DNA of 64,000 nt from Candidatus Poribacteria bacterium (GCA_965214045.1 OZ243935.1:2794904-2858903); one strand, 5' to 3'. Positions 31,807-46,385 are shown, counted from the first letter of the stretch. A program made the numbers and translations. Notes: generated by a model not told the origin, from the sequence alone.

Positions 31807-32892
31807 TCAACTTAACGCTTGTTGTAGACTTGCTTCAACCCCTTCAGCTGGTAATAGGCGTATCATTTCATCTGCCATCGCTTTTCCACCTACTTCTCCT
31901 GTTCTTCCTTCGTATTCACCATCCTTGCGCCAATCTATTTCTGATGCAGCTTTTACTAAACGTCTGACGTTGTCCCAATTCATACCTATTTCCTCGTTGT
32001 AGCTCCGCGAGAAAATTTGTGCCCCGGTATACGACCAAGCTATCAGACCTGTGAGCTCAAGGAGTTTGTACTCAAAAGCGTTTCTGCGACTGCCCTTTAT
32101 TTCAGGATCATCGAGTTTTTCAATATCTGCCCATTCTTCATGAAGATGGTCAGCGATTATCGTCCAGAGCTCGGACATGTACTCGGTTTTCTGATCAACA
32201 TCTAAATCTTGAACTCCTCCGAGTCCAAATAGGCGCGTAACTTGCTTTGCCACACTATGGAGAGCAAATAGATGTGTACGCTGCATTGATGTCTTTGTAA
32301 TCCTTCCTTTAAAGGGACTGTCATCTCGTTCATTAAGTTCCCATCCGACTTGTGCTTCTGGTTTCCCTTCAAGGTAAGCTGTTAGAGGTTTGGGTACTCC
32401 TTTTTGGTTGTCGTTGACATTGATGAATTCTTTTGCTTCTTGTTCAGGAGTGAGATTTGGAAGCAGAATGAAGGAAACTTCGCGTACATCACTGTCAGAT
32501 TCATACAGCTCTACAAAGCCACCAAGACGATGTTGTCCATCAAGGATAGCGGCTTTTCCTCGAATGATAAGTTTTCCAGTATTTTGTCCTTCCCCATTTG
32601 GTTTGAATTGCCAGTTACCACGTCCGGAGAGCAGAACGGGTGGAACTATACTATCGGGGTATTCTGTGAGAAACTTCGCGACCTGTTTCATACGAGTTAG
32701 TGAACCAGGTCTCTGGTAACCCTCTTCCACGATTTCATTAAGACAAGTTTTACGACTGGATTCAATAACGGGGACAAATGTCACGTTCTTAACCTTATCA
32801 GATTTAATTGTTCCAAATAAGTACTTCTGATTGCCTTGAGTCTTCAGAATGACTCCTTTTATTTCCCCAATTGTATTCGTTTTATTAGTCAT
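31807..32892 (-). CDS. DGQHR-domain protein (DndB-like)
   Basis: 361 aa. Contains AILDGQHRLGG, the signature of the DndB/DGQHR family. Last gene of the minus-strand defense cluster. Confidence 0.7.
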   Translation of the reverse strand: MTNKTNTIGEIKGVILKTQGNQKYLFGTIKSDKVKNVTFVPVIESSRKTCLNEIVEEGYQRPGSLTRMKQVAKFLTEYPDSIVPPVLLSGRGNWQFKPNGEGQNTGKLIIRGKAAILDGQHRLGGFVELYESDSDVREVSFILLPNLTPEQEAKEFINVNDNQKGVPKPLTAYLEGKPEAQVGWELNERDDSPFKGRITKTSMQRTHLFALHSVAKQVTRLFGLGGVQDLDVDQKTEYMSELWTIIADHLHEEWADIEKLDDPEIKGSRRNAFEYKLLELTGLIAWSYTGAQIFSRSYNEEIGMNWDNVRRLVKAASEIDWRKDGEYEGRTGEVGGKAMADEMIRLLPAEGVEASLQQALS

Positions 32893-32936
32893 TGATTAAT
32901 TCTCCTCAATGCAAGTGCGGTGTCGGTTTAACGGAA

Positions 32937-33227
32937 TCATTCTAACGTTTCAACCTCGTAAGGTGCCATCTGTGTCGCATCCGTTTTGCGGACGCGAAAT
33001 TGGATGTCCTTAAAGAGTCCATCATTATTTTTTCTCAAGCTTTCAAGGGATTCCCCTAAGGAACGTGCTGATATGTAGAAGATATACTCAAGGTCATTGC
33101 TGATTTTTTTTACGTGAAGAATAGGGGCATACCCCTTAAATGTCAAAACAACATCCGGTTCAGAGATAATTTCCAATTCTATCCATCCGGTCCCGACTTT
33201 TAAAGGCGGTGGTAATTCTTGAGGCAT
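32937..33227 (-). CDS. Hypothetical small protein (96 aa) within the defense cluster
   Basis: ORF only. 8-bp gap to the upstream gene. No recognisable motif. Confidence 0.3.
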   Translation of the reverse strand: MPQELPPPLKVGTGWIELEIISEPDVVLTFKGYAPILHVKKISNDLEYIFYISARSLGESLESLRKNNDGLFKDIQFRVRKTDATQMAPYEVETLE

Positions 33228-33235
33228 AGTTTCTC

Positions 33236-33751
33236 CTATAGATCATGCAGTGCTTCGGCAAGCTGATTTTGAATCGCTTGTTCCTCTGTAACAGGTTCGG
33301 ATTGCAGTAGGTCGTCAAGGGCATCAGAAAGGTTCCATATCGGGCTTTCGGAGCCTTCGTTTAGCATTTTCACGATGTGGGGGACACCTGCAGCTGCCAG
33401 ACCGTTGGCGATGTCCATCATGCGACGCGGCTTAAGGACAACCTCTAAGTTTCCTTCAACGGCTATCGCAATTAACATGATCGCTTGCGCCTGCCAGCCA
33501 TCCGTGTCAAAAATATTACCGCTAATGATGCTAACAGTGTCCTTTTTCTTTTTTGTTAAATGCATCGGTTTAAGATTCTGACGCGCTGCCAGCGAGAGTC
33601 CGGCAAACCAGAGATCCACCTTTCGTGGAAACGGAGTCTTAGCGGCTTTCGCACCTGCTCCCGTTTGGCAGTAATGATCGTAGTCATCCCGCTGTATAGT
33701 AGGTGATATGATTTGCATATTGCGAAAAGGATTATCGTAGTGTTGTGCCAT
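33236..33751 (-). CDS. Hypothetical protein (171 aa) within the defense cluster
   Basis: ORF tightly packed between the DndD-like and the 96-aa gene (9-bp and 8-bp gaps). No recognisable motif. Confidence 0.35.
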   Translation of the reverse strand: MAQHYDNPFRNMQIISPTIQRDDYDHYCQTGAGAKAAKTPFPRKVDLWFAGLSLAARQNLKPMHLTKKKKDTVSIISGNIFDTDGWQAQAIMLIAIAVEGNLEVVLKPRRMMDIANGLAAAGVPHIVKMLNEGSESPIWNLSDALDDLLQSEPVTEEQAIQNQLAEALHDL

Positions 33752-33760
33752 AGTGATCTC

Positions 33761-35884
33761 CTAAGATTCCGGCTGGATTTCTACCTCAACATCCGTGCGT
33801 CGCTTGCAGCGTTCACATTCTCCGAGGTCCTGGCACTCACACCGGAGTGCCTGCGGTTCATTTATATGTGGATCGTTTACTAATATAGTGGGGTAGTGTG
33901 CCGAATTTGTAATGGTGATGATACGTCCTGCTTCATCTGCTATAATATCTTCACAGTCTTTAATTTCGGAACGCGTCAGAAAGAGGATCAGTTGTGCACT
34001 TTCTTGAACAGCTGTTTTGAGAACGGAACGTTTGACAAACCCGTCCATCATTCCGAGGGGTGTATCAATCACGTTTGGTGCTATAACTTCACTGACTTTG
34101 GTGAGGGCGAGAATAAACGCTACCGTCAATGCTCTCCGAGAGGCACCATTTAAATCTTCCCTGGGGTTCAAAGCGCGTTTATTGGGTCCATAGACGAGAA
34201 TATTAAAATCTGGACTGATTTCTGCTTTCTGGATGATTGCTCCCTGTTCAGCGTCCGCGCCGATCATTTCCAGAAAAAATGTGTTCATCAACCGACTCAC
34301 TTCTTGCAATTCTTCGTTTGTGATTCGTTCGTATGAATTTTCAAGGATTTGCTCTATATCGCGCGTGGCATCTAATCTGGCTAATATTCCTTCCCCTCTT
34401 CTCTGTTTACTTATAAGGTTATTATGTGTTGCTGTTAAGGATCTCTGACTTTTTTTCAGGCGGTCAAGTTCTATTTCGTGCTCTATATGGGTACCGTTCA
34501 AAGAATCGCGTTGAGCAATATAGTCTTGCTTAGTGGCGCGAAGTTCTTGAATGTCGGTATCCCCTATACTCTCAAGTTGGACTTCCAATACGCTGAGTTC
34601 TTTTTCCAATTCTACGCGTCGAGCTTCAAGTTCATCGCGAAGGATTGCGTTTCTCTTGTATTCAGCGATCCAGTGTTGCTCATGGCTAATCTCTATCGGT
34701 TTCAGCTCCAATGAACCGAAATAAAGACCGGTCAGACGTGTTTGAAGTTCATCTGTTTCCCGACTCTCGCTAATGAGTCGTTCGATATGCGCTCTGCGCC
34801 GCTGTCCGTCTTCCGAGTGTTGATCCAGGGACTCTCCACAAATGCAGGCAGGACCTGTGAGTCGTTCTTCAAGCACAGGAATCGTTGTTTTCGGCAGTTT
34901 ACCCTGGTTGCTGAGTTCATCCAATTTCTCAAAACTTTTTTCCAAAACCGGGGCGAGCAGATCTCGGAATAGCGGCGGCTTTCTGAAGAATTGTGACTGC
35001 TCAGAAACCAGTTTTTCCTCTTGATTTTTGATTCTTTTTAGTTCTGCTTCTGATTTTTGCAGTCCGCGATTAAGTTCTTCTTGGTCCCCCTTAAGCAACG
35101 CTGCTTCAATGTCTTTATCAATTTCCGTTAGACTGTGATTGACTGCATCAAATTGAAGTTTCGCATCATCTCTTTCCTTTTCAAGACGTTCAACCTTTTC
35201 ATCTATCTCCCCCAATTCTGTAGCGATTTCGACAAGTTCTGTATCGGTTCCGATATTCTTTGAATCTCTATTGAGTCCAGCCATTGTCTTTTTCAAGTGA
35301 TCGAGAGCAGTCTCAATCACATCAAGGCCTAACAATGATTGAATGGCTTCCTGAACCTGTTTACGCTTATCTGTTCGTGAGTCTGCTTCAATGAAACTCA
35401 GTGCCCTGTCTCCGTCGGTGAAAAATACTTCACGCAAATTAGAGGGGACCAGGAGTCTGGCGATCTGTGCATCTGGTGTAGGTATTGGGGTGCTCCCAGT
35501 TTCTGTCAGTTCAAACAATTCTATTTTCGGGTTTTGTCTGAGCCCCTCGGTTGTCTCCTCTACGGAACGAATGAGGCAGTAGCGACTTGTCTTATTTCTA
35601 TTTGCCTCTGATGCAGGTGTTTCAAAATCGACTTGCACAGATATCGGAATTGCTTGACCATCAGGGACATCCCAATCAATTGGAAATAGTCGGTGTCCTC
35701 TACCTTTATCCGGTAGGGCATCATCGCCGTAGAGAGCCCATTGTAGCGCGTTTAAAATGGTCGTTTTTCCGCTCTCATTGGAGGCGCGAATGACCGTGAG
35801 TTTTCTGTCGTCACTGGTCGAAAAATCTAATCTTAGGTCTCGTAGCAGTCGAAAGTTTTGAAATCTTGCCCTGATGAGTTTCAT
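33761..35884 (-). CDS. DndD-like SMC/ABC-type ATPase
   Basis: 707 aa. N-terminus MKLIRARFQNFRLLRDLRLDF...LTVIRASNESGKTTILNALQWALYGD matches the DndD/AAA_23 Walker A region. Long coiled-coil middle. C-terminal signature/D-loop region. Confidence 0.65.
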   Translation of the reverse strand: MKLIRARFQNFRLLRDLRLDFSTSDDRKLTVIRASNESGKTTILNALQWALYGDDALPDKGRGHRLFPIDWDVPDGQAIPISVQVDFETPASEANRNKTSRYCLIRSVEETTEGLRQNPKIELFELTETGSTPIPTPDAQIARLLVPSNLREVFFTDGDRALSFIEADSRTDKRKQVQEAIQSLLGLDVIETALDHLKKTMAGLNRDSKNIGTDTELVEIATELGEIDEKVERLEKERDDAKLQFDAVNHSLTEIDKDIEAALLKGDQEELNRGLQKSEAELKRIKNQEEKLVSEQSQFFRKPPLFRDLLAPVLEKSFEKLDELSNQGKLPKTTIPVLEERLTGPACICGESLDQHSEDGQRRRAHIERLISESRETDELQTRLTGLYFGSLELKPIEISHEQHWIAEYKRNAILRDELEARRVELEKELSVLEVQLESIGDTDIQELRATKQDYIAQRDSLNGTHIEHEIELDRLKKSQRSLTATHNNLISKQRRGEGILARLDATRDIEQILENSYERITNEELQEVSRLMNTFFLEMIGADAEQGAIIQKAEISPDFNILVYGPNKRALNPREDLNGASRRALTVAFILALTKVSEVIAPNVIDTPLGMMDGFVKRSVLKTAVQESAQLILFLTRSEIKDCEDIIADEAGRIITITNSAHYPTILVNDPHINEPQALRCECQDLGECERCKRRTDVEVEIQPES

Positions 35885-36126
35885 TGCGTAACCTCTGTCG
35901 TTGGGTTATCTGTATCACGTTTCCTCGCGAGAAAATCGCCAGCCTTATGGCATGCTTGGTTTACCTGTTTTTGAATGGTTGTTCTTTGTGCTTGATGTTC
36001 TCTCTCGGCACTGAGGATTTCAACGATTGCCTCAAGCACTTTTTTCCTGTAGCCGTCGCATCTTTCCTCAATAGATTCACATTCATTGAGAATCATCTTT
36101 ACCATTTTTTCCTTGTTATATGACAT
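35881..36126 (-). CDS. Hypothetical small protein (81 aa), translationally coupled (ATGA overlap) to the DndD-like ATPase
   Basis: ORF only. 4-bp overlap with the downstream gene start. Confidence 0.3.
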   Translation of the reverse strand: MSYNKEKMVKMILNECESIEERCDGYRKKVLEAIVEILSAEREHQAQRTTIQKQVNQACHKAGDFLARKRDTDNPTTEVTQ

Positions 36127-36137
36127 AATCTCCTCCG

Positions 36138-38282
36138 TTATACGTAAAGGGTTCTAACCAGTTGGTCGATGTGGCTTAAGGGTCCATCAGGTCTACCAAA
36201 GTTCTTCGCAAGGTAAGCGAACGCTTGAATCCGTTTGAGTTCGGACGCTATTAAGGCATGTGCGCGAGTGTCCAGATTATCCAAATCCGGGGGTAGCGCG
36301 ATAAAATCGTGGATTTCACTGTGCGTTTTGCTGGTCTTACTACACGTGCGGAGCAGCCTCCCGCGCCGCTGCGTCCACTGCCGTTCCACTGTGGTGCTCG
36401 CCAAAATAAAAGCCTTCTCAATTTCTGGGATATTCACGCCTTCATCAAGTACACGCTTTGCGGTTAAGACACGCAGCGTTCCTTCTTGAAAGGACTGAAT
36501 AATCTGTGCGGTTTTTTTACGGTCACCTGTTTCTTTGTAGGTCAGTTGATGAAACAGCACCCCGTGTCTGTTCAGTAAGGCGTTAACAGCTTTCAGCTGC
36601 TGCGGTGCCTTGTCAGAGGCGTAAATCAAGGTATGCTGGAGTTTGTTGAAATCTTCGCGTTGCGTTAAGACATCTTCTAACACGGCGACCTTATTTTCTG
36701 CGTTCTCCAAAAGTGCCCGACGGTCTCGGAGCAATTTCATAAGGTACACATTGTCCGCATCCTCGTTCTCCTGCATCCACGCATTTTTCCTGATCTCTTC
36801 CGTGAGAGCATACCACTCCTCCATTTCGTCCTCTGTGAGTTCTACCGGATGCACGTAGTATTCGTATTCAACGAGGCATCTGCCGATGGCTTCCTCAAGT
36901 GTGAACTCAAAAACAATAGGTCCGAAAAACGCAAATAACTGATCCGTGCCTTCTTCATCGTATTGACGGATCGGAGTTGCGGATAAACCTAATCGATAAT
37001 CGAAAAATTCAGGCGGATCGGTGATGAATCCTTCACTTCCGAGATTGTGGACTTCATCAGCAATGAGTAAGGTTTTACAATCGAATTTCTTCAGTTCCTC
37101 TTTAAAATTAGGACTGCAAAGGGTCTTATGAGAAACAATGGCGATCTCAATGTCGCTACTACCGAATCGAAGCCTCCGCTCAAGTTTCTTAAGTTCAGCT
37201 GCACGTCCCCTTGCTCCATTCACCTCAGTCAGATTAACTGGCTTCAGCCCAAAGGATGAAATTTCATCACACCACTGTTGGATGAGGGGTATATAGGGCG
37301 CGGCAACGACGATAAGCAGTGGTTTCTCCGTCTCATAGAGTCTATGTGCACAAATCATGGCAGCGATGGTTTTTCCTGAACCTGTTGCCATTTCTAATAT
37401 CCCTTGATGACCGCCTTCACACCACGCTTTCACAGCTCTCCCTTGATGTTCAAAGTCACCCTCCTCAAATTCCAGATATGATGGTATTGTAAATGAAGGA
37501 CGGGGCACCTTAAAGTCGTAAGTTGTAGAAGCTTCCTGTATAGCAGCAGCTTCCGCTTTGTAGAGTGTGTGAAAGTCGTCCTCTGTCGGTGGGATATCGG
37601 AGTTATAGGTTTTCAACAGATTTTCCTTAATTGCTTGTGGTATCGGAATCACAGTGCACGTCTCATCGTAATTCGTCCAAAATTGCTTGAACTGATCGCA
37701 CAATTTTTCTGTAATATAGTATTGGTTACCATCTTCCCACGATTTGGAGATGGACATCTGCTCAATATTTTTCTGAATACCGGCGTAGGTCATATTGCTG
37801 GAGCCGTGTGCTGCGATAACATCGTCACCCTCGTGAAAGAGCCAGACCTTGGGGTGGAAAAGCGCATCTTTCATCAAAGCGATTTTGATTTCCACGCGTC
37901 TGTGACGCAGCATCCATGAGAGGCATTTCAGCGTATGCTGCGCAATAGCGTTTTCGGTAACAACAAAATCTTCTAAAGCTGTGTTGACGATATCCTCTAC
38001 GGAGGCTACGCCTTCTGCTATTGCCGCTTTGTCTTCAGGGCGGAGCAGCGGACTGATAATCAGACGCAAACTTTCGTCTGCACAGTTTATGAACGTTGCT
38101 AATCCTGGCGCAAGGGACACCAGAATTTCACTCGAAAAGAAACCTATCATGCAATCAACATGCGTAGCAGACTGAAAGCACGGAATTAGGACATCTTCTG
38201 TCGCGGGATCCTTTGGCAACATGTAAAGGGGTCGAATATCGGGTATCGCCCGAAGTGTCATCCCATGATTTTTTCTTTTCAT
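36138..38282 (-). CDS. Phospholipase-D-family nuclease domain fused to an SF2 (DEAD/DEAH) helicase
   Basis: 714 aa. N-terminal HxK...GSxN (HPKVWLFHEG...GSSNMTYAG). Helicase motifs I MATGSGKTIAAM, II IADEVHN, VI QRRGRLLR. Confidence 0.65.
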   Translation of the reverse strand: MKRKNHGMTLRAIPDIRPLYMLPKDPATEDVLIPCFQSATHVDCMIGFFSSEILVSLAPGLATFINCADESLRLIISPLLRPEDKAAIAEGVASVEDIVNTALEDFVVTENAIAQHTLKCLSWMLRHRRVEIKIALMKDALFHPKVWLFHEGDDVIAAHGSSNMTYAGIQKNIEQMSISKSWEDGNQYYITEKLCDQFKQFWTNYDETCTVIPIPQAIKENLLKTYNSDIPPTEDDFHTLYKAEAAAIQEASTTYDFKVPRPSFTIPSYLEFEEGDFEHQGRAVKAWCEGGHQGILEMATGSGKTIAAMICAHRLYETEKPLLIVVAAPYIPLIQQWCDEISSFGLKPVNLTEVNGARGRAAELKKLERRLRFGSSDIEIAIVSHKTLCSPNFKEELKKFDCKTLLIADEVHNLGSEGFITDPPEFFDYRLGLSATPIRQYDEEGTDQLFAFFGPIVFEFTLEEAIGRCLVEYEYYVHPVELTEDEMEEWYALTEEIRKNAWMQENEDADNVYLMKLLRDRRALLENAENKVAVLEDVLTQREDFNKLQHTLIYASDKAPQQLKAVNALLNRHGVLFHQLTYKETGDRKKTAQIIQSFQEGTLRVLTAKRVLDEGVNIPEIEKAFILASTTVERQWTQRRGRLLRTCSKTSKTHSEIHDFIALPPDLDNLDTRAHALIASELKRIQAFAYLAKNFGRPDGPLSHIDQLVRTLYV

Positions 38283-38318
38283 ATTGGTTTACAGGTATAG
38301 AAATTGATGTGATTAAAA

Positions 38319-39572
38319 TCAGTGTTGGTTTGCCCCTTTGCGAGCGTTACATTGTCTGCAAAGTGTTTGGGCGTTTTCAAGAGTTGTTTTCCCACCATCC
38401 GCGTGAGGAGTTATGTGATCAGCTTCCATTTTATCAAATTCGATTTTTTGGTTGCATCCTTGACAAGTCTCATTGTCTCTACGCCAAATCACAATTCGTT
38501 CGTCACGAGAGAAAGCACGTTGTGAGTCTTTTCGCACTAAGTGCTGGATGTCTCGGAGGAATCGTCTTTTATATACTTCATGTCGCTTTTCGAGGTTAGG
38601 TTTTGTCCCACCTGAGCGGATGAAAGCTTCAATGTAATCATACATATCTCTATCCCAAAGACTTTTGCCTGCAGCAAGTAATTCACTGGGATCTGATATA
38701 ACTGACCGCCTCTCTTCTTCAAAGGCAACGTAAAAATCAGCGAAGTCAATCTCGTGATCTCGGATAACATAGGACTTATTCATTTCCGAAATTAGTAAAT
38801 ATAAGTCTACAAAGCCCCACTTAACGTCCATGTCGGGAGGACGATTTTCCAAAACTTTTTCCATATATCCTAAGTGCCGTCGAACTTTTTTGGCAACAGA
38901 TCCATTGTGGTCAAAATTCTGATTATTCCTGTACATTTTGGTGAGACTCGGTGCCTTGACATCCGTTGGTCCTTGTGCTATCTCCAGACGCGTTACTACA
39001 GCGGCCAGGTCATGCCACCCAAATCTCTTTTCTGAAAGGAAGGTTAATGGAAAAACACGATGGTTATCTCCTAAGTTTGCTATGAAATCTCGCATTTTAC
39101 CCGGCATAGCGTTTCGTTTTTCTACAGGATTCAAAGACAGTCCTTCTTGCAATCTTAGAAAAAGATCTCGTATATCTAAATCTGATGCATCCTCAACCTC
39201 AACTAAATTAAGCTCAAATATTGCAAATTGATCCTGAATATCGCTTGGCAATTCTGAGAATTTCTTACCTGATAAGTCCCCAAAATTAGGTATGTCTCTT
39301 GATGCTTCACCCAGGACATACTGATCATCATGGAAATCCCAAATAGCATTCAGCCTTTGCTGTCCATCAACAACCTCATGCTCATACTCAGAATCAGACG
39401 ATACTCGGAGGTAAAATTTGGGCATATCATATTGTCGAAGTATTGAGTCAATAAGCAATTGCTTTTTTGCCTCATTCCAAACTGGAGTCCGCTGATACTG
39501 AGGTCTTGGATTTATCTTTGGCTTCCTTCTGGCAATTGTTTCAATTGTCCAATGTCTTGGTCGAGTTTTCAT
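38319..39572 (-). CDS. DUF262 (ParB-like, DGQQR motif) plus C-terminal HNH nuclease; GmrSD / SspE-like
   Basis: 417 aa. N-terminal VVDGQQRLNAI. C-terminal CQGCNQKIEFDKMEADHITPHADGGKTTLENAQTLCRQCNARKG. Confidence 0.65.
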   Translation of the reverse strand: MKTRPRHWTIETIARRKPKINPRPQYQRTPVWNEAKKQLLIDSILRQYDMPKFYLRVSSDSEYEHEVVDGQQRLNAIWDFHDDQYVLGEASRDIPNFGDLSGKKFSELPSDIQDQFAIFELNLVEVEDASDLDIRDLFLRLQEGLSLNPVEKRNAMPGKMRDFIANLGDNHRVFPLTFLSEKRFGWHDLAAVVTRLEIAQGPTDVKAPSLTKMYRNNQNFDHNGSVAKKVRRHLGYMEKVLENRPPDMDVKWGFVDLYLLISEMNKSYVIRDHEIDFADFYVAFEEERRSVISDPSELLAAGKSLWDRDMYDYIEAFIRSGGTKPNLEKRHEVYKRRFLRDIQHLVRKDSQRAFSRDERIVIWRRDNETCQGCNQKIEFDKMEADHITPHADGGKTTLENAQTLCRQCNARKGANQH

Positions 39573-39621
39573 GGGTCAGCCCTACTCCGATTGCATAAAT
39601 AGATTCTGTGCAGTAGAAATA

Positions 39622-40473
39622 TCACTTATGGCACGCCAAACACGGTTCCTCATCATCCTCATCGTCAAGCACATCCGTGAAGATTTGCACCAAACGTTGA
39701 TTCGGTCTCTCGGATCGCTTGGCGGCAAGGGCTGCTGTAGCCTCCGCCTTAATCTGCGCGACACGCTCCGGTCGCGACAACTCCGCTAAACTCTCGCCTT
39801 GACACCACGTGAATTGTTGATCTGTCCTGGCATTTTCATTAGGCTCTTCTTCATATTTCCTCGCGAGCGCAAAGAGATCAGGATGCTTTTCTAATAAGCC
39901 GACCCACTCGGCTTTACGCTGGAAGAAACAGAAATAACACCCGGAACGCGTCCGCCACTCGTAATACGTCGGAAGCCCGAGCCCGCTCTCCTCCAGAATC
40001 CGATAGACATCCTCTTTCGTGATGCCGTCCTCTTTGAACGGATACTTCGGTTCAATGTTCCGTAAATCCGTGGTTCTCAGCGGTTTGTAACCCGTCCTGT
40101 CTTCGTCTGCACGGATGGCGATGTAGTGATACGCTTTGTCTGCGCCGATGTATTCCTCGAAAGGTATGATTTTCAGGTTAGCTGTGCACCAGCGGACTTG
40201 GGAGGACGGCAAGAGCCCCCCGTATAAGGCTAACCAGTGGTCAAAACTGCGGTCTTCATTCGGATCCGGATTCATATTGAGACGGACAATCGGTTTGCCG
40301 AGATGCGCTTCTAACCGATCCAGGTATTCATACGTCTCTGGAAGTTCCTTACCTGTATCCGAGAAAAAGTATTCCATCTCTATTTCCGGTTTTTCTCTAC
40401 GCATGTAAACCGCGAGGGCGGAACTGTCTTTGCCGCCAGAGAGTCCGAGGACGTGTCGGATATTTTCTGCCAT
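39622..40473 (-). CDS. PAPS-reductase-family ATP pyrophosphatase (SspD/DndC-like)
   Basis: 283 aa. PP-loop LSGGKDSSALAVYM. C-terminal CxxC (CLACHK). Confidence 0.65.
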   Translation of the reverse strand: MAENIRHVLGLSGGKDSSALAVYMRREKPEIEMEYFFSDTGKELPETYEYLDRLEAHLGKPIVRLNMNPDPNEDRSFDHWLALYGGLLPSSQVRWCTANLKIIPFEEYIGADKAYHYIAIRADEDRTGYKPLRTTDLRNIEPKYPFKEDGITKEDVYRILEESGLGLPTYYEWRTRSGCYFCFFQRKAEWVGLLEKHPDLFALARKYEEEPNENARTDQQFTWCQGESLAELSRPERVAQIKAEATAALAAKRSERPNQRLVQIFTDVLDDEDDEEPCLACHK

Positions 40474-40546
40474 GTCTCCTCCTACGAGTCAGTTGTGCAG
40501 AGGCGTATAAAACACGAGGCACAACCGAACAGGGTATGCTACGGTG

Positions 40547-43500
40547 TTAAATTGCCCTTTCGTTCTCAAATGCCTGCATCAGTTTTTGTGAGATACGCGC
40601 CAAAACAGCGAGTCGGAATCCGTGATTTTTCTCTGCGTCCAGTTCATCAAAAGCCGTCTCAATCGCGCGTTCCAATCCAACTGCCTGTGCCTCGGCAGTT
40701 GCGGGTAAAGTGACGACCTGTTCTTGTTCGGGTTGGTTTCGGGTTGTAATACCGATCCGAATCGCTTCACCTGTCGAGGTTTCAGTATGACCGGGTTGAT
40801 CGTAAGACACGGCTTCAAGGTGTCGGAACTTCCGTGCAAGATGTGAAAGATTATTTTGGAATTGGGCTTTATCTGTGTCTAACCATTTATCCGGCGGTTT
40901 TTTCGCGAGATAACTCGCGAGAGCGACAAGCCAGCTTTTGAAATCGTGTCCACCGCTATGGATGTTGATTAAGAATCCCTTGAGGTCGGTTTCGATCGCG
41001 ACCGGTAACAGGACTTCAGCTCTACAGACGAGGGCATCGCGGAGTGTCTCTGATGTGAGATCAAACGCTGTCGCTAACATCTCCTCAAGAGAATCCAATA
41101 GACGGTCGTATGCCTGATTTAACTCGGATAACGCCCCTTGCAGCGTCCCGAAAAATTGTGAAACGCCGTGGGGATCCGTTGCTGTCTCTGCCTTAAAAGC
41201 CGGGAACCCGAGTGCTGCTGGCAGCTGTTTAAAGAGGAGTTCATCAGGTTCGCGTGCATTTCCGAGGGTGGCACGGAGATTTTGAGCAGCTTCACTGAGT
41301 TCTTGCGTGGTCCGCGTGTACTGCGGGAGTTCGCTGATCGTCTGGACCAACGGCACGACAACCGTCAAGAGATCCGGTTTTTCAGAGGCTTCAGCGGTAT
41401 CGAGCGCGCCTAAAAATTGGGGGAACAGGTCGGCACGGATATCCGTCATCCGAAAACGTTTCAGTTCAAAGCGTTCTGGTCTTTTAATTAACCTTTCAAA
41501 GACGGGGATCGTCCAGTTCGGGATGAAGGATCCGTTTTCATAGAGGGCGATCTCTGTTTTGTAGTGAAGTATCACCGCACATAACAGGATAGGCAGCGGT
41601 CCCTCGCGGGCACCAATAGGCGGTTTCATCAGGTCTGTGTAGAGGTTAGGCAACGGCTGCCGTCTGTCTTCACACGTTTCAAGGAACTGCTCAATCGCTT
41701 CCCATATCGGTCGGACATCGTTTGTCGCGTCAGGTGAGGGCGGATGAAACCGCCACATATCCGATCCTGGAATTTGACGATGGATGCCTGTTTCTAAGAG
41801 AAGCGACCGGTAGATACTCATTTCAGCGGGGTAACCCTCTATACCGAGATTATCTTCGGCTTCCTTTTCAAGCATCGCTTGGATGAGTTTCCGCCTCGCG
41901 GTTGTAACAGCACCGGAGACTTTCCGTCTGTTAATGAGTTCGTGCCGAATCACAGGCGTTTTGGGGTAGACAGCATCGCAGATTTCTGAGAGATATCCAT
42001 TTCTCTCACGCAGCGACTTGATGGGGATCTCTTTTCCCTTATGATACCATTGACACGGATTGTCAGTACCGCCTTTACCTTTAAAGAGTGACGTTACTTC
42101 TTCAGATACACTGCGTTCCGCTTCTGAGGAACGGATTGCGAGTTCACGTCTGGCGGTTTTATCGCCTTCAAGTTCTTCCGTATTCTGCGAGACCCAGTGC
42201 AAACACGCAAGTTCTCTGACGGCACCGTATAGCGTATCTGTGGATGTTGGCATCGCAAGGAGTACCTCCTCGCGGCTTTCGAGGTTTTCACGTTTCGCTT
42301 TTTCGAGGATTTGCTTACCTTCGTTTTCATCCCCCGGCAATGCATAGAGCACAAGTCCATCTGCCGAATCAAGAGGTGCTGCGAGGGTATCCTCAAAGTT
42401 GTCAAGGTCTGTATAACGCACTGTGAAATAGCGGAGGGTGCCTTTCTCAAAAAGATGTCTGCGTGCGATGAGAGGGCGCGGCGGTATGAAATCTGACAAA
42501 TAGGTCATCAATCTTTCGTTTCGATTGAGCTGCCCTTCTGCATGCTGGAGCCGCTCTTCGATATTAATATCGCTGCCTTCCCAGAGCGCATAGGTCTTAT
42601 TATGCCGCCGATGGATCACAATTGAACGGGCTTGGATGTCTTCAAGTGTCCTGCTAAATTCCTCCTTAAATCCTGCCGTCTGATCGTCTAAAGCATAACG
42701 GAGGACCCCTTCTGAAGCGTTTAGGTTTCTACTGACTTCTCCGACAATCCCAAGCAGACCGATGGTTTTGATGAGTTTCACGAGCAGCGGCGATGGATCC
42801 GCCAATCGGTTGATAGCCATCTCAACTTCGAGCCACCGGTCCCCTTCGCGCGAGGTATAGAGTCGGTTTCCCAGACTGAGCTGGAGATAATCGTAGAGGT
42901 CGGGGATTGAAAACATCGGCAGCGTGTTCCCGTCATAAGACCGGTTTTCCAGAAAATCGCGGAGTCCATGCGGTTCAACTGCATTCAGGAAAGCAAAGAG
43001 AGAGCGTTCATTTTGTGCGAATTTTCGGAAAACGGGTCCGATGAGGAGTGCTACAGTTGGGTGAAGCGGTAGACAATTTCGGAGCAACTCGCGAAAGGCA
43101 GCCGCATCGCCGAATGGATTGAGATTGAGATCAGAGGCAGGCAGCAGCTGCAGGTCTCCGATACCTTCCGTGTCCTTGTTTTGGATAGCGGAGCCAATGA
43201 GTTGAAGGATTTGATCTGCCGGTTCCACGAAGGCGAGATCTTCAAACCGTCCTTGAACCTTTGCCCATTCCTCGCGTTGTGAGGCTGCTGCTCTGTTTGC
43301 ATAGTGTTCAAAAGCTTGATGCAAGATAGTCATGAAAAAGAGGGGTGTCTCTGCACTCCGTGTCGCAAATTCAGCGAGGGTTTGTAGCACAAACACATCG
43401 CCTTGCGCAGGATGTTGTGCGGCGTGTTCAAGGAACTTGCCAAGTTCGTCAACCACGAGTAACAAACCGCCACCGCCTTTTTTCTTGATTGTCAGTGTTG

Positions 43501-44056
43501 CAGATTCAAAAAGTGCTGTGACTTCAGTTGCTGACAAGGGATTGCCGTTTTTCTCTGTTTTCAAGAGTGCTTGGATGTCTTTTCGCAGGGAGTGTCTTGC
43601 GGTGATATGAAAGGTTTGAAGTCCGTGTTCTAATCCTTGCAAGAGGGCGTGTGTAATGGATGCGCGTTCGCCAGAGATAAGCACTGGACAAAAACCAACT
43701 GCCGTTTTTTCTCTGTTCCCGTTTAGGCTCAAAAAACGTTCGTATAATGGCGGATCGCTGTGTTTGAGTAATTTCAGAGCGTGTTTTGTTGTGGCGGTGT
43801 CAGTGTTTCCGAAGAGTTTTGCGGCGAAGAGTGCGAACGCAGATTTCCCCGCTCCGTAAGGACCCGTGAGGGACCACGCTTTTGATGTCGCCTCGTTCTC
43901 TCGTGCTGTGATAAGCCGAGCAAGGGTCTCCCGTGCTTTGACAGTCACAACGTAGCCATCTAAGGCGTTTTCGGTATAGAAATCGCGTGCCAGATGAACA
44001 GAACGTTGAAAGCGTTTGGTGATGTGAAAAATATCTGACAAGGGTGTGTTAGCCAT
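40547..44056 (-). CDS. Large P-loop ATPase (SspC/BrxC-like, DUF499-type)
   Basis: 1169 aa. Walker A LTGPYGAGKSAFALF (~aa 66). Walker B LLLVVDELGKF (~aa 210). 8-bp overlap with the upstream DUF4007 gene. Confidence 0.55.
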   Translation of the reverse strand: MANTPLSDIFHITKRFQRSVHLARDFYTENALDGYVVTVKARETLARLITARENEATSKAWSLTGPYGAGKSAFALFAAKLFGNTDTATTKHALKLLKHSDPPLYERFLSLNGNREKTAVGFCPVLISGERASITHALLQGLEHGLQTFHITARHSLRKDIQALLKTEKNGNPLSATEVTALFESATLTIKKKGGGGLLLVVDELGKFLEHAAQHPAQGDVFVLQTLAEFATRSAETPLFFMTILHQAFEHYANRAAASQREEWAKVQGRFEDLAFVEPADQILQLIGSAIQNKDTEGIGDLQLLPASDLNLNPFGDAAAFRELLRNCLPLHPTVALLIGPVFRKFAQNERSLFAFLNAVEPHGLRDFLENRSYDGNTLPMFSIPDLYDYLQLSLGNRLYTSREGDRWLEVEMAINRLADPSPLLVKLIKTIGLLGIVGEVSRNLNASEGVLRYALDDQTAGFKEEFSRTLEDIQARSIVIHRRHNKTYALWEGSDINIEERLQHAEGQLNRNERLMTYLSDFIPPRPLIARRHLFEKGTLRYFTVRYTDLDNFEDTLAAPLDSADGLVLYALPGDENEGKQILEKAKRENLESREEVLLAMPTSTDTLYGAVRELACLHWVSQNTEELEGDKTARRELAIRSSEAERSVSEEVTSLFKGKGGTDNPCQWYHKGKEIPIKSLRERNGYLSEICDAVYPKTPVIRHELINRRKVSGAVTTARRKLIQAMLEKEAEDNLGIEGYPAEMSIYRSLLLETGIHRQIPGSDMWRFHPPSPDATNDVRPIWEAIEQFLETCEDRRQPLPNLYTDLMKPPIGAREGPLPILLCAVILHYKTEIALYENGSFIPNWTIPVFERLIKRPERFELKRFRMTDIRADLFPQFLGALDTAEASEKPDLLTVVVPLVQTISELPQYTRTTQELSEAAQNLRATLGNAREPDELLFKQLPAALGFPAFKAETATDPHGVSQFFGTLQGALSELNQAYDRLLDSLEEMLATAFDLTSETLRDALVCRAEVLLPVAIETDLKGFLINIHSGGHDFKSWLVALASYLAKKPPDKWLDTDKAQFQNNLSHLARKFRHLEAVSYDQPGHTETSTGEAIRIGITTRNQPEQEQVVTLPATAEAQAVGLERAIETAFDELDAEKNHGFRLAVLARISQKLMQAFENERAI

Positions 44057-45032
44057 AACACCTCTCTAAAAGTTCCATTTCATTAAGATCTCTCTGTCGA
44101 TACAGTTGTTTCAGACCCGTCGTTTCATCGTATTCAAACGCGCCATCTGTGAGTTCTGCGAGGTCCTCAAGATAGACCGTCAGGGTATCCTCATCTAATC
44201 TGAAAACGCGTCCAGGACTCGATGGGGCATACATCAGTTCTGAGAACGCCAGTGAGTTTCTCTGGGAGAATTCGTTCGCCGAAAACGTGTCTTGTGCCCA
44301 AGGGTATGGATGTTTCCAAAATGTGTTCAATGCCCAGGCGACGACTGCCGTGGAAAGTGTTTCTTTTTCGCCACGCTGGAATTCATAACCATCTCCACCC
44401 ATTAATTCCGAGATCAGGTTCAACTCGACGAGCGGGCAGTCGAAGGTATCTTCAACGACAGCAGTGGTATCGCGTGATTGACAGTAAGTTCGGAGAAAAC
44501 AATTGACATCGCGCCGGAGTGTATTGTCGGAGACCAACCGCATCCCGGGTCTCTGTTGCTGTGCCCACCTGTAGACCTTTTGTGTAAATATATCCGGCAT
44601 AAACGGATTATCTGTTAAAATATTGAATGCCCAATACCAGGCTGTGGCTTGGGTGCCGCCTGTTGCGATCTGGTAGTGGATGATCCATAGCGTCGCCGGG
44701 TCTTCAAGGTATGGGTCGAATCCTTCTTCAGCAAAAATGTCTTTACCGAGTTGAGTCGGTGCAAATTGCCCGCGTCGGGACTGGGCGGTATCCTCTTTGA
44801 TGAGTCGAGTTGCCCGACACCAATGCCGAATGGAGTCCACCATGTTTTTTCCGACCCCTAAAGTAACGGAAGCATCCGCAGCTGAAAAAATGGTCGGATT
44901 TTCTATCACGGCATCAACGCCTTTCTTCAACCATGTATAGCGAAAAGGGAAGGTCTGGTGTCCTGAAAAAGAGGGGGAGATCGGTGGGATGTTACGCATA
45001 ACCTGCCCCCCTGGAGTATCTGGGCGGGTCAT
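44049..45032 (-). CDS. DUF4007-family protein (SspB-like)
   Basis: 327 aa. N-terminus SFSGHQTFPFRYTWLKKG matches the DUF4007 signature as I recall it. First gene of the operon. Confidence 0.5.
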   Translation of the reverse strand: MTRPDTPGGQVMRNIPPISPSFSGHQTFPFRYTWLKKGVDAVIENPTIFSAADASVTLGVGKNMVDSIRHWCRATRLIKEDTAQSRRGQFAPTQLGKDIFAEEGFDPYLEDPATLWIIHYQIATGGTQATAWYWAFNILTDNPFMPDIFTQKVYRWAQQQRPGMRLVSDNTLRRDVNCFLRTYCQSRDTTAVVEDTFDCPLVELNLISELMGGDGYEFQRGEKETLSTAVVAWALNTFWKHPYPWAQDTFSANEFSQRNSLAFSELMYAPSSPGRVFRLDEDTLTVYLEDLAELTDGAFEYDETTGLKQLYRQRDLNEMELLERCYG

Positions 45033-45159
45033 GCGAAAAGCAGGACGCGTCGAGCGTAACGCGGAACAATGAAAATAGCCCTTCGGTTAAGCGAGCGCGC
45101 GGGATAGCGGCAGCTGCAATAAAGGATTTATATTGTGTTTTACTTAATTTTTGTAAAGT

Positions 45160-45169
45160 GGGGGGGGGG
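45160..45169. repeat. G10 homopolymeric tract ~130 bp upstream of the defense operon start
   Basis: GTGGGGGGGGGGT read directly at 45160-45169 in the 460-bp intergenic region. Confidence 0.85.
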
Positions 45170-45491
45170 TAGATTGGCTTGTTAAATCAGGTGCCCAGAC
45201 GGCTTCCGGGGGTACGAATAACCTCTTGAGGCAAGGATTCTTATCAAGCATACGTGCTATTCTGATTATAGTGTTCATATCTCGATTTTTCATTCGCTTT
45301 ATTGATTAAGTACAGAGTGATGGGAATATTCAGATTTTTGTTCCTGATGTCAAGTTTACTTAAAATTTTAGCACGGATTCGTATTAAATGTCAAATTTTT
45401 TTGCTTTACTGCATCTATCATTAGTTTTTAGAATTTTATATGGATCGGATGTTCTAAAAGTTTAAGGGATATCGCAGGAAAAATTGGAGGG

Positions 45492-46385
45492 TTAGTAAAT
45501 TGAAAGTTCTCGGTAGTTTCCTTGAAACACTTCCCTAACATGCCAACCAATGAACTGTACCTCTGGATAATGGGATTGTCTTTGCGGGAGAAGAAGCGTT
45601 TTGCCGTGATACCGCTGCAGCCATTCCTTAAAGCCTTTTGTTCCGTGCGCGTCATCTGATACAAGGATTTGTCGTTGCTTGGATAGCGTAAAAGCTCCGC
45701 GATCAAATAATTCGTGATGTAACACGCATAAAGCAAGGCCATTCACTGCTTCACTGGGACCGCCATGCGATTTCCATTTGATATGTGCAGCTTCTAACGC
45801 GATAGGCGTATTTCCTAATTTCACATCGAAGCCGCATACTGCACATTTACGCTCGTAAGCTCTTAGGATGTTTTCTCGGAAATTGAGAGAGCGTCTTTTC
45901 GTCTCAAAAACTTGGAATGGTGGTTGAATGTTGACAGCTTGTAAAATTTCGCTGTGGCGTGTGAGAGGGAAGTGATCATCCAGCAAATCGTAGATTATTT
46001 CAAAGGCGAGTCTTGAATCGTTTTGAAGTTGATTTGCGATTGATTTAGGGAAACCACCGACTCCATGATGTCGTAAATCGGTTACGTAGGCATCTCCACT
46101 GGAAGTTTGTCGAATTCGATCGGTATTCCTTATCTCCCAGATTTCGTCGTTTTGCAGCCGCCAAAATGGGTGTTGAGGATGATAACTTTTGCGCCACGGT
46201 CCAAATTCTCTCAGCAAATTGCGAAGATCGTCCTCTGTAGCCTCAAATGAAATGTGTTTATCTTCACCGCTCAGCAATTTTCCGATTGCATACAATATTA
46301 ACAGTGGCTTGTGGGCTGCCCTTTGGTCGCCTCTTTTCCATACATTCAGATTCTGGAATTTATGAATGATTTCTTCTCGTGTCAT
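45492..46385 (-). CDS. HNH endonuclease with an N-terminal DNA-binding/sensor domain (type IV restriction-like)
   Basis: 297 aa. C-terminal CAVCGF...LEAAHIKWKSHGGPSEAVNGLALCVLHHELFDRGAF HNH motif. N-terminal HKPLLILYAIGKLL domain of unknown specificity. Confidence 0.6.
   Translation of the reverse strand: MTREEIIHKFQNLNVWKRGDQRAAHKPLLILYAIGKLLSGEDKHISFEATEDDLRNLLREFGPWRKSYHPQHPFWRLQNDEIWEIRNTDRIRQTSSGDAYVTDLRHHGVGGFPKSIANQLQNDSRLAFEIIYDLLDDHFPLTRHSEILQAVNIQPPFQVFETKRRSLNFRENILRAYERKCAVCGFDVKLGNTPIALEAAHIKWKSHGGPSEAVNGLALCVLHHELFDRGAFTLSKQRQILVSDDAHGTKGFKEWLQRYHGKTLLLPQRQSHYPEVQFIGWHVREVFQGNYRELSIY

Follow-up and report, generated by a model that had tools for sequence, protein, structure and literature searches.

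How can a run of a single nucleotide set the expression of a gene? In the fim2 and fim3 promoters of Bordetella pertussis, a poly-C of variable length lies between the activator site and the -10 element and sets the expression state. Leader-peptide attenuators with proline codons or with stalling close to the stop, such as tnaC of tnaC-tnaAB, and mgtL and mgtP of Salmonella mgtA/mgtCBR, also act upstream of the genes that they control. Defence systems are thought to matter for symbionts in a virus-rich filter feeder such as a sponge, and the partial, heterogeneous phosphorothioate (PT) modification of genomes is a long-standing puzzle. In phase-variable Type I and Type III restriction-modification genes, simple repeats are found in mod, res or hsdS (PMC12707154), and the Pgl (BREX type 2) phage defence of Streptomyces coelicolor, in the form in which it is described in a citing paper, phase-varies via a tract of G within pglX (Sumby and Smith, 2003, as cited in PMC4365076). 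Here we deal with a run of ten C that lies in front of a PT modification operon of the Ssp type, sspBCD, on a stretch of 64,000 nucleotides from Candidatus Poribacteria bacterium (GCA_965214045.1 OZ243935.1:2794904-2858903), which is called the window in the following.

This tract is very probably a selected, hypermutable regulatory element of some kind. As to how it works, we lean, with slightly better than even confidence, towards a frameshift-gated switch, in which slippage of the tract within a short leader open reading frame (sORF) would control read-through and translational coupling into the sspBCD(-effector) operon; depending on the length of the tract, ribosomes would probably either stop short of a terminator or pass through it, in the latter case switching on the operon. 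Defence systems that phase-vary by means of a homopolymer are already known, and what is unusual here is the placement in a leader open reading frame (ORF) with one frame running through a terminator to the next start. Like Pgl, so far as the citing paper describes it, the locus seems to combine a G/C homopolymer with an anti-phage system of epigenetic modification, and Pgl has an ATPase of the BrxC/PglY family while SspC here matches the BrxC-PglY models. In that description the Pgl tract is part of the modification enzyme's own coding sequence, which it cuts short, whereas the genes here are intact: the tract stands upstream of them, in a small leader ORF, and its effect would be on read-through and coupling. 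The modification is phosphorothioation here and methylation there. Slipped-strand mispairing in a simple repeat, and the population heterogeneity in DNA modification and defence that would follow, would be shared with phasevarions; the repeats of phasevarions, unlike this one, are located within the ORF of the enzyme or else in the spacer of a promoter. By analogy, the attenuators tnaC, mgtL and mgtP resemble the locus in their short and poorly conserved leader ORF, in proline codons near its stop and in termination signals before the first gene. Known attenuators sense a metabolite or translation speed with a fixed sequence, whereas the codons here are those of a hypervariable homopolymer, and one frame reaches the next start codon. 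With Bordetella fim the locus shares a long variable C run upstream of a gene, but its conserved promoter lies 128-245 nt upstream of the run, which is transcribed and most likely translated. If this reading is right, it would be an unusual wiring for a contingency locus, composed of a leaderless or short-leader sORF, a homopolymer, two early-stop frames and a third frame through the terminator to the next start, in an element conserved across many species of an uncultured phylum of sponge symbionts, and stochastic switching of the PT writer would be one possible cause of heterogeneous PT modification. Neither a phase-variable Dnd or Ssp system nor a paper that connects phosphorothioation with Poribacteria came up in the literature searches made.

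The tract came to attention through a prediction made from the sequence of the window alone, in which a G10 homopolymer was placed in a 460-bp intergenic region about 130 bp upstream of DUF4007, the first gene of an Ssp-like operon. Measurement agrees with this description. The tract reads GGGGGGGGGG on the plus strand, and the intergenic region is 459 bp, counted from the upstream ORF (45492-46385, minus strand) to the longest sspB ORF (ATG 45032). From the tract end to this ATG there are 128 nt, and to the more probable sspB start (ATG 44999) 161 nt. Matches to Pfam and PADLOC likewise identify the first gene as DUF4007/SspB, followed by SspC and SspD.

45160 to 45169, minus strand: homopolymer, C10 on the operon strand and G10 on the plus strand, encoding PPP inside the leader sORF

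No other G/C run of 8 or more exists across the 64 kb of the window, where the next longest is 7 and 0.06-0.07 runs of 10 or more are expected by chance. A stronger argument than composition that the tract is not there by chance is comparative. Relatives of SspB were searched in one genome per species, which gave 80 loci of 532 kb in total, nearly all of them from Poribacteria metagenome-assembled genomes, the best being 74% identical. Among the 21 G/C runs of at least 8 in these sequences, 19 are poly-C in the orientation of sspB, located at the same site, 125-344 nt upstream of the sspB match. Two conserved motifs flank 17 of these 19 tracts in the composite pattern TTAACAAGC-N2-10-C(n)-ACTTTACAAACGATAAGTA, which occurs once in the window, and the other two, L023 and L047, carry diverged versions of it. 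When this pattern was scanned for in metagenomes, one true match (L084) and 16 chance matches were obtained, and the same scan of a viral collection gave one chance match and no true one. Altogether the tract is found at the same site upstream of sspB in 27 loci, the window and 26 others, in lengths from C8 to C17: it is C14 in L084, C17 in L106, C11 in L107, C10 in L112 and L113, and C15 in L114, and the diverged lineages with a recognisable element have C8 (L023) and C9 (L047). A contingency locus is supposed to carry a pure G/C homopolymer of about 8 or more, and so do the window with its C10 and the 26 further loci with C8-C17; none of the 27 tracts is interrupted or shorter than 8, in lineages with SspB proteins that are only 58-84% identical. 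Apart from the leader, homopolymers also occur within the sspC coding region of two loci that have no leader tract, at 4504-4514 of L057 (C11) and at 5462-5469 of L026 (C8). There the frame is intact and reads PPP. The same system may have, in these runs, contingency tracts of a second type that is located in a coding region.

In a contingency locus, near-identical strains, or members of one population, are also expected to differ in tract length next to stable flanks. L107 and L108, two contigs from sample ERZ18545484, are identical over 3,945 bp except for one single-nucleotide polymorphism (SNP) and the tract, which is C11 in the former and C8 in the latter. L118 and L119, from two samples, encode the same SspB; 14 SNPs separate them over 3.97 kb, and the sole indel is at the tract, C12 versus ATCCCCCAAA+C9. 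If a close pair is defined by at least 85% identity in the 200-nt flank, the tract lengths differ in 17 of 19 such pairs, whose flanks carry 0-5 indels per 400 nt. As a control, the upstream region of another Poribacteria lineage that lacks the tract (including the look-ups of P0046 and P0036) is near-invariant, with a single SNP over seven assemblies. A short-read contig of Logan, ERR10921753_2618578 (L115), starts inside the poly-C at its position 1 (cccccccACTTTACAAACG...), which suggests that assemblies split there through heterogeneity of homopolymer length or poor coverage. Positional conservation, purity over at least 8 nucleotides and fast change of length relative to the flanks thus support, at the level of sequence comparison, the proposal that this is a slipped-strand tract able to phase-vary a PT defence operon. 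The original prediction had named uniform tract length together with a transcription start downstream of the tract as the combination that would speak against it; lengths vary, and the conserved promoter found by scan and alignment is upstream. In the pair L118/L119, the ATCCCCCAAA insertion before C9 (1352-1373 of L118 compared with L119) creates a TGA that ends the sORF ahead of the tract, and the variant bearing it may be a 'locked' allele or an artefact of short-read assembly.

What, then, could be altered by a change of length? The tract is located inside a leader sORF, where its length modulo 3 would pick the reading frame, so that it appears to be placed where a change of length can alter expression. 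The parts of the leader are the following.

45365 to 45394, minus strand: predicted promoter P1 of the leader and the operon, sigma-70-type, TTGACA-N18-(TG)cTAAAAT, with an extended -10; 11/12 in the promoter scan, aligned across loci
45144 to 45293, minus strand: leader sORF MKNRDMNT...STPPPLYKN*, 49 codons in the C10 state, running through the tract
45177 to 45185, minus strand: motif TTAACAAGC, close to the tract on its 5' side; its nucleotides are conserved, and the frame in which it is read differs between lineages
45141 to 45159, minus strand: motif ACTTTACAAAAATTAAGTA (consensus ACTTTACAAACGATAAGTA), carrying the early stop of the C10 frame, TAA 45146-45144

The consensus of P1, TTGACA-N18-TGnTAAAAT, stands directly after the stop of the upstream gene and is matched perfectly in 15 of 24 loci, and the tract is always 128-245 nt downstream of its -10. 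Since P1 is upstream of the tract, the tract is transcribed and is not a promoter spacer; of the 'promoter/leader' in which it had originally been placed, the leader part holds and the promoter part does not. In six loci the ATG of the sORF comes 6-8 nt past the -10 of P1, a spacing which implies a putative leaderless mRNA, and the segment between P1 and the sORF ATG is missing in the lineages of L002, L005, L006, L013 and L019. Between a conserved ATGAAAAAT and the tract, the frame of the sORF, and no other, is open in 21 of 21 loci; this had been scored as 20 of 21 through a mis-assigned start in L032, whose true ATGAACAGC frame is open. For the open sORF frame, the shuffle probability is 0.07-0.17 per locus, and the loci form about ten lineages with many substitutions and indels. 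A homologous 48-aa ORF in L116 was called by a gene caller. An open frame of this kind, presumably translated, is also the short ORF between promoter and first structural gene that attenuation requires. A functional small protein, or a protein of about 100 aa broken by a frameshift, was considered and rejected on the codon-position pattern, which is without purifying selection, and what is apparently selected is translation through the region rather than a protein.

Beyond the tract, the three frames have very different fates, as exemplified by the window.

44992 to 45159, minus strand: 'long' frame, free of stops from the tract until TAA 44994-44992, a codon overlapping the sspB start (ATGCGTAA); read only with C8, C11 or C14

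In all 26 loci analysed, two of the three post-tract frames stop within 4-29 nt. The third runs on without a stop for 127-294 nt, until a TGA or TAA in overlap with the sspB start or just after it. The ends of this long frame are TTGA, TTGAGTAA or ATGCGTAA, and in L047 TTG-N11-TAA, about 14 nt past the start. When tract lengths were simulated in the window, C7, C10 and C13 stopped at 45146 and C9 and C12 at 45142, while C8, C11 and C14 gave a leader ORF of 99-101 codons ending at TAA 44994-44992 and overlapping ATG 44999. The two early stops are +13 and +17 from the tract end, and the second of them, TAA 45142-45140, straddles the 3' end of ACTTTACAAAAATTAAGTA. The window with its C10 is in the short state, and C11 (or C8 or C14) would give the long state. 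Both the offset of the open frame and the peptide encoded by it differ between lineages, and hence openness has been maintained through indels. Could such an open frame arise by chance? In an earlier and looser test, from which the conserved motif was excluded, the probability was 0.5-0.64, i.e. the open frame was unremarkable. A stricter test, with the conserved motif fixed, the rest dinucleotide-shuffled and openness required to the start codon in all lineages, reversed this impression: the probability is 0.05-0.76 per locus, and the product over one representative each of about ten lineages is about 7e-6. The original prediction can thus be extended, in that the tract lies inside a conserved small leader ORF and the downstream frames point to a switch that would be translational, by frameshift and coupling, and not one of promoter spacing.

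Between the tract and sspB, several structures are predicted in the transcript.

45066 to 45136, minus strand: predicted stem-loop followed by a U-rich stretch (45078-45065); minimum free energy fold of -15.5 kcal/mol, near-identical in L106
45033 to 45063, minus strand: terminator-like hairpin CGCGTTACGCTCGACGCG (45063-45046) followed by the U-run TCCTGCTTTTCGC (45045-45033), from terminator scan and fold
44995 to 45035, minus strand: hairpin predicted by folding to hide the G-rich Shine-Dalgarno (SD) sequence (GGGGGG, 45011-45006) and the sspB start codon
44049 to 44999, minus strand: sspB (DUF4007), by Pfam and PADLOC, with probable start ATG 44999 set by alignment and SD; the longest ORF begins at 45032 (44049-45032)

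In most lineages a first hairpin follows the tract, and its stem varies in sequence with the pairing kept (ACGGAUU/AUUCCGU, ACGGUAU/AUACCGU, ACGGGAG/UCCCGU). In lineages other than those of the window and L106, the equivalent of the window stem-loop is this hairpin together with a conserved GC-rich stem after it, G(C/U)CCGC...GCGGGC, with U5-U7. Next come a pyrimidine-rich spacer, a G-rich SD (GGGGAGGG, GGGGG or GGGGGG) and a weak start, TTG, in place of which the window and L106 have ATG; ATG 44999 of the window, with its SD at 45011-45006, aligns with the TTG starts of the homologues. Outside the lineage of the window, folds show the SD paired with a C-rich segment (ttttACCCC). Attenuation requires an intrinsic terminator downstream of the leader ORF, and the conserved 6-bp GC stem with its T-run, the folds and the window hairpin all suggest one here. 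Consensus folding returned the terminator stem only, without compensatory double changes, its support being conservation and not covariation. In L002, L005 and L006, there is only about 20 nt from the terminator U-run to the sspB SD, which leaves no room for a promoter; sspB of these three, having no promoter of its own, is therefore expected to be reached only by read-through. Around 35 Poribacteria loci without the tract (L014, L016, L020-L022, L025 and others) have the sspB ATG 6-7 nt after TATAAT, and this TATAAT-N6-7-ATG arrangement implies a predicted leaderless sspB mRNA, while tract-bearing loci use TTG with a G-rich SD instead. A comparison of the G-rich SD between the two groups is confounded, because the loci without the tract are leaderless. 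The poly-C itself was also considered as an anti-SD and rejected; it pairs with the SD in the fold of L005, but not in those of the window or L001.

How would these parts work together? Transcription would start at the conserved strong promoter, right after the upstream gene (an SBD-HNH gene, see below), the sORF mRNA being leaderless in several lineages, and ribosomes would translate the sORF through the poly-C as poly-proline, so that tract length modulo 3 would set the frame of the ribosome beyond the tract. In the short frames the ribosome would be released 4-29 nt past the tract, the hairpin, the terminator-like stem with its U-run and the SD-hiding structure would form, and the operon would be off or low. 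In the long frame, the ribosome would follow RNA polymerase through the terminator, melt the SD helix and terminate at the sspB start or within about 14 nt after it; the terminator would then be suppressed, the SD opened and translation coupled into sspB, with the operon on. Replication slippage would make such a state heritable yet reversible, which is phase variation. CCC-C runs are prone to ribosomal and transcriptional slippage, and slippage of these kinds on the same run could add a basal 'leak' from short alleles; leaky short alleles would agree with the predominance of short states among the assemblies.

Several observations weigh against a frameshift-gated switch. The assembled tract is in the long state in only 3 of 26 loci (L019, L011 and L009); among 21 of the others, the long frame would be reached by +1 C in 14 and by -1 C in 7. 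At any single locus an open long frame is not improbable by chance, because the region is A-poor. Neither near-identical pair offers a clean contrast of short and long: L107 and L108 differ by 3 nt, so that both stay in the same short frame, and the 7-nt insertion that distinguishes L118 and L119 truncates the sORF ahead of the tract. Homopolymer lengths in assemblies may themselves be wrong by about 1, and which state is ON and which is OFF is inferred. The peptide of the sORF is unconserved, with differences by codon position of 0.37/0.41/0.44, a search of a protein database with it found no relatives, and no obvious SD precedes the sORF in the lineages where it is not leaderless. The folds examined gave no antiterminator or conserved alternative pairing, and fold z-scores were unremarkable; an alternative helix is not part of the mechanism proposed, which is direct read-through by the ribosome. 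The simple terminator scan misses the nested stems of L001 and L005. Lastly, the strong nucleotide-level conservation of both motifs flanking the tract is left unexplained by a frameshift model.

One of these motifs deserves a further remark. At 45177-45186 (minus strand) and homologous positions, (T)TTTAACAAGC resembles the 3' part of boxA, whose consensus is GYTCTTTAANA (PMC5725501). Compared with this consensus, TTTAACAAG has no 5' GYTC, so that C4, the critical position in the consensus of E. coli, is missing too, and the window has no rRNA operon from which a boxA of Poribacteria could be derived. Scans of the region and window with Rfam and for tRNA gave no known RNA family or tRNA.

Is it possible that the ribosome on the tract, and not the frame beyond it, is what matters? 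A physiological attenuator would keep the poly-C for poly-proline stalling (EF-P, Pro-tRNA) and/or Rho loading, the ribosome on the tract would control termination, and changes of length would be incidental tuning. Such an attenuator would accommodate the terminator-like structures downstream and the at least 2-5 consecutive Pro which the tract gives in every frame, few codons before the sORF stop, and it would be indifferent to the frame: post-tract frames are distributed 10:7:5 among 22 loci without preference, and the within-sample variants L107 and L108 share theirs. Why exactly one post-tract frame should stay open to the sspB start in 26 of 26 loci, and why there should be tracts as long as C14-C17, it leaves unexplained, and we regard it as unlikely, though deserving of some weight.

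Phase variation at the level of the promoter is a second alternative. In analogy to the C-stretch of Bordetella fim, the tract would alter the spacing from TTAACAAGC, as an operator or UP-like element, to a promoter whose -35 is the TTTACA found 2 nt past the tract. TTTACA follows the tract in most loci, and the flanking motifs are conserved as DNA whatever the reading frame. A complete promoter-like site, TTTACA-N17/18-TAAAAT/GATAAT/CAAAAT, is present in only 6 of 24 loci, however, and is lacking in the other 18 and in the window; a promoter P2 adjoining the tract was rejected for want of conservation. From one motif to the other there are about 13 to 26 nt, with no preferred value, a transcript from such a site would still meet the terminator, and P1, which is conserved and by far the better promoter, has the tract downstream of both its elements and not between them. 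Taken together, a switch by promoter spacing, of the type of Bordetella fim or Neisseria opc/porA, seems to us very unlikely. One further promoter-like site is found in the leader, upstream of the tract.

45325 to 45353, minus strand: second promoter-like site, TTGACA-N17-AATATT; weak, 10/12 in the scan, in a segment present only in some lineages

It can also be asked whether the tract has any regulatory role, or is merely slippery sequence that is neutral, or a recombination junction, hitch-hiking with the module of SBD-HNH and ssp genes, or whether its apparent variation is an artefact of assembly. The window is indeed a mosaic with a breakpoint at the tract, and homopolymer lengths are error-prone in long-read and short-read assemblies. 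Neutral homopolymers decay, yet 27 of 27 tracts have stayed pure and at least 8 long over lineages as distant as those compared here; tracts are present alike in MEGAHIT, SPAdes and long-read assemblies, and differences of 3-8 nt are above the usual consensus error. The absence of any role is thus highly improbable.

As for the mosaic itself, the window is recombinant, as a comparison of 45000-45500 with L001 and L106 brings out. Upstream of the tract, 300 nt match L001 with 93% identity but L106 with 39%; downstream of it, 160 nt match L106 with 96% identity but L001 with 39%. The two parts join at the tract with its flanking motifs.

Directly upstream of the leader is a gene that encodes a nuclease with a ScoMcrA-type sulfur-binding domain (SBD).

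45492 to 46385, minus strand: SBD-HNH gene for a 297-aa HNH_2 protein (Pfam HNH_2; homologues carry PF26340 DNA-SBD_ScoMcrA and PF13391)

Homologues of this gene are also found at L001 1545-2438 and L106 1171-2535, and in L107, L112, L113, L114, L116 and L118. An SBD-HNH gene stands directly upstream on the same strand in 18 of 18 loci with the tract and in 0 of 56 without it. Enzymes of the SBD-HNH type act by cutting DNA that is PT-modified, and dnd neighbourhoods are reported to be avoided by them (PMC7461809). A switchable PT writer beside an SBD-HNH gene is notable because such neighbours are reported to avoid each other, and the exclusive pairing of a PT-binding nuclease with a PT writer contradicts the avoidance expected (PMC7461809). 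Hardly any credence can be given to the idea that the tract is a PT substrate or sensor, a CC run ending in CCA as in the Ssp motif 5'-CpsCA-3', with modification or SBD-HNH binding exerting a feedback on how the operon is transcribed: Ssp systems place the CpsCA modification on a single strand (PMC9646914, PMC12707154), A follows the tract in most loci and the tract and the SBD-HNH gene strictly co-occur, but CCA is so ubiquitous that the match has no weight, the CpsCA specificity is taken from other Ssp systems and not from Poribacteria enzymes, the base after the tract is G in three loci and T in L023 and L047, and the ORF and frame architecture would be left unexplained.

The frameshift-gated switch may also be extended to a bolder scheme, which we consider quite unlikely as a whole. 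In this scheme a frameshift gate of three levels (replication, transcriptional and ribosomal slippage), set between a PT-dependent SBD-HNH nuclease gene and a PT writer operon, would split clonal symbionts into two mutually exclusive immune states. With the writer OFF, the genome would be unmodified and SBD-HNH would attack PT-marked invaders; with the writer ON, the genome would be PT-marked and PT-sensing effectors would attack unmarked invaders. If so, the strict linkage of switch and SBD-HNH gene (18/18 versus 0/56) would reflect the need to avoid self-restriction.

Downstream of sspB, the presumed operon continues on the same strand with the following genes, the rest of it spanning 33761 to 44056.

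40547 to 44056, minus strand: sspC (PADLOC E=0), matching BrxC-PglY models
39622 to 40473, minus strand: sspD (PADLOC 2.8e-113; Pfam PAPS_reduct)
38319 to 39572, minus strand: gene for a DUF262/GmrSD_N-HNH protein (Pfam)
36138 to 38282, minus strand: PbeA-like PLD-helicase gene (profile match)
33761 to 35884, minus strand: PbeC-like ATPase gene

SspB (PADLOC match 4.5e-96), SspC and SspD are encoded together, as is required of an Ssp system. Of the ORFs examined between 27.5 and 50.4 kb, none was recognised as an SspA cysteine desulfurase; IscS encoded elsewhere can substitute for SspA (review, PMC12707154). The fourth gene has DUF262/GmrSD_N and HNH, not DUF1524, and its product does not match the SspE model. 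As judged from these matches, the core writer is Ssp-type and the effector set is non-canonical. Exact-protein look-ups with the window SspB, from both candidate starts, and with the window HNH protein gave no match; the strain of the window is known from one contig of 4.82 Mb only, and P0001 is a 316-aa protein 100% identical to the window SspB. The region 31807-38282 (minus strand) contains the PbeA-like and PbeC-like genes, a 171-aa ORF and a DndB-like gene, so that the island as a whole comprises an Ssp writer with Pbe-like and SspE-like effectors.

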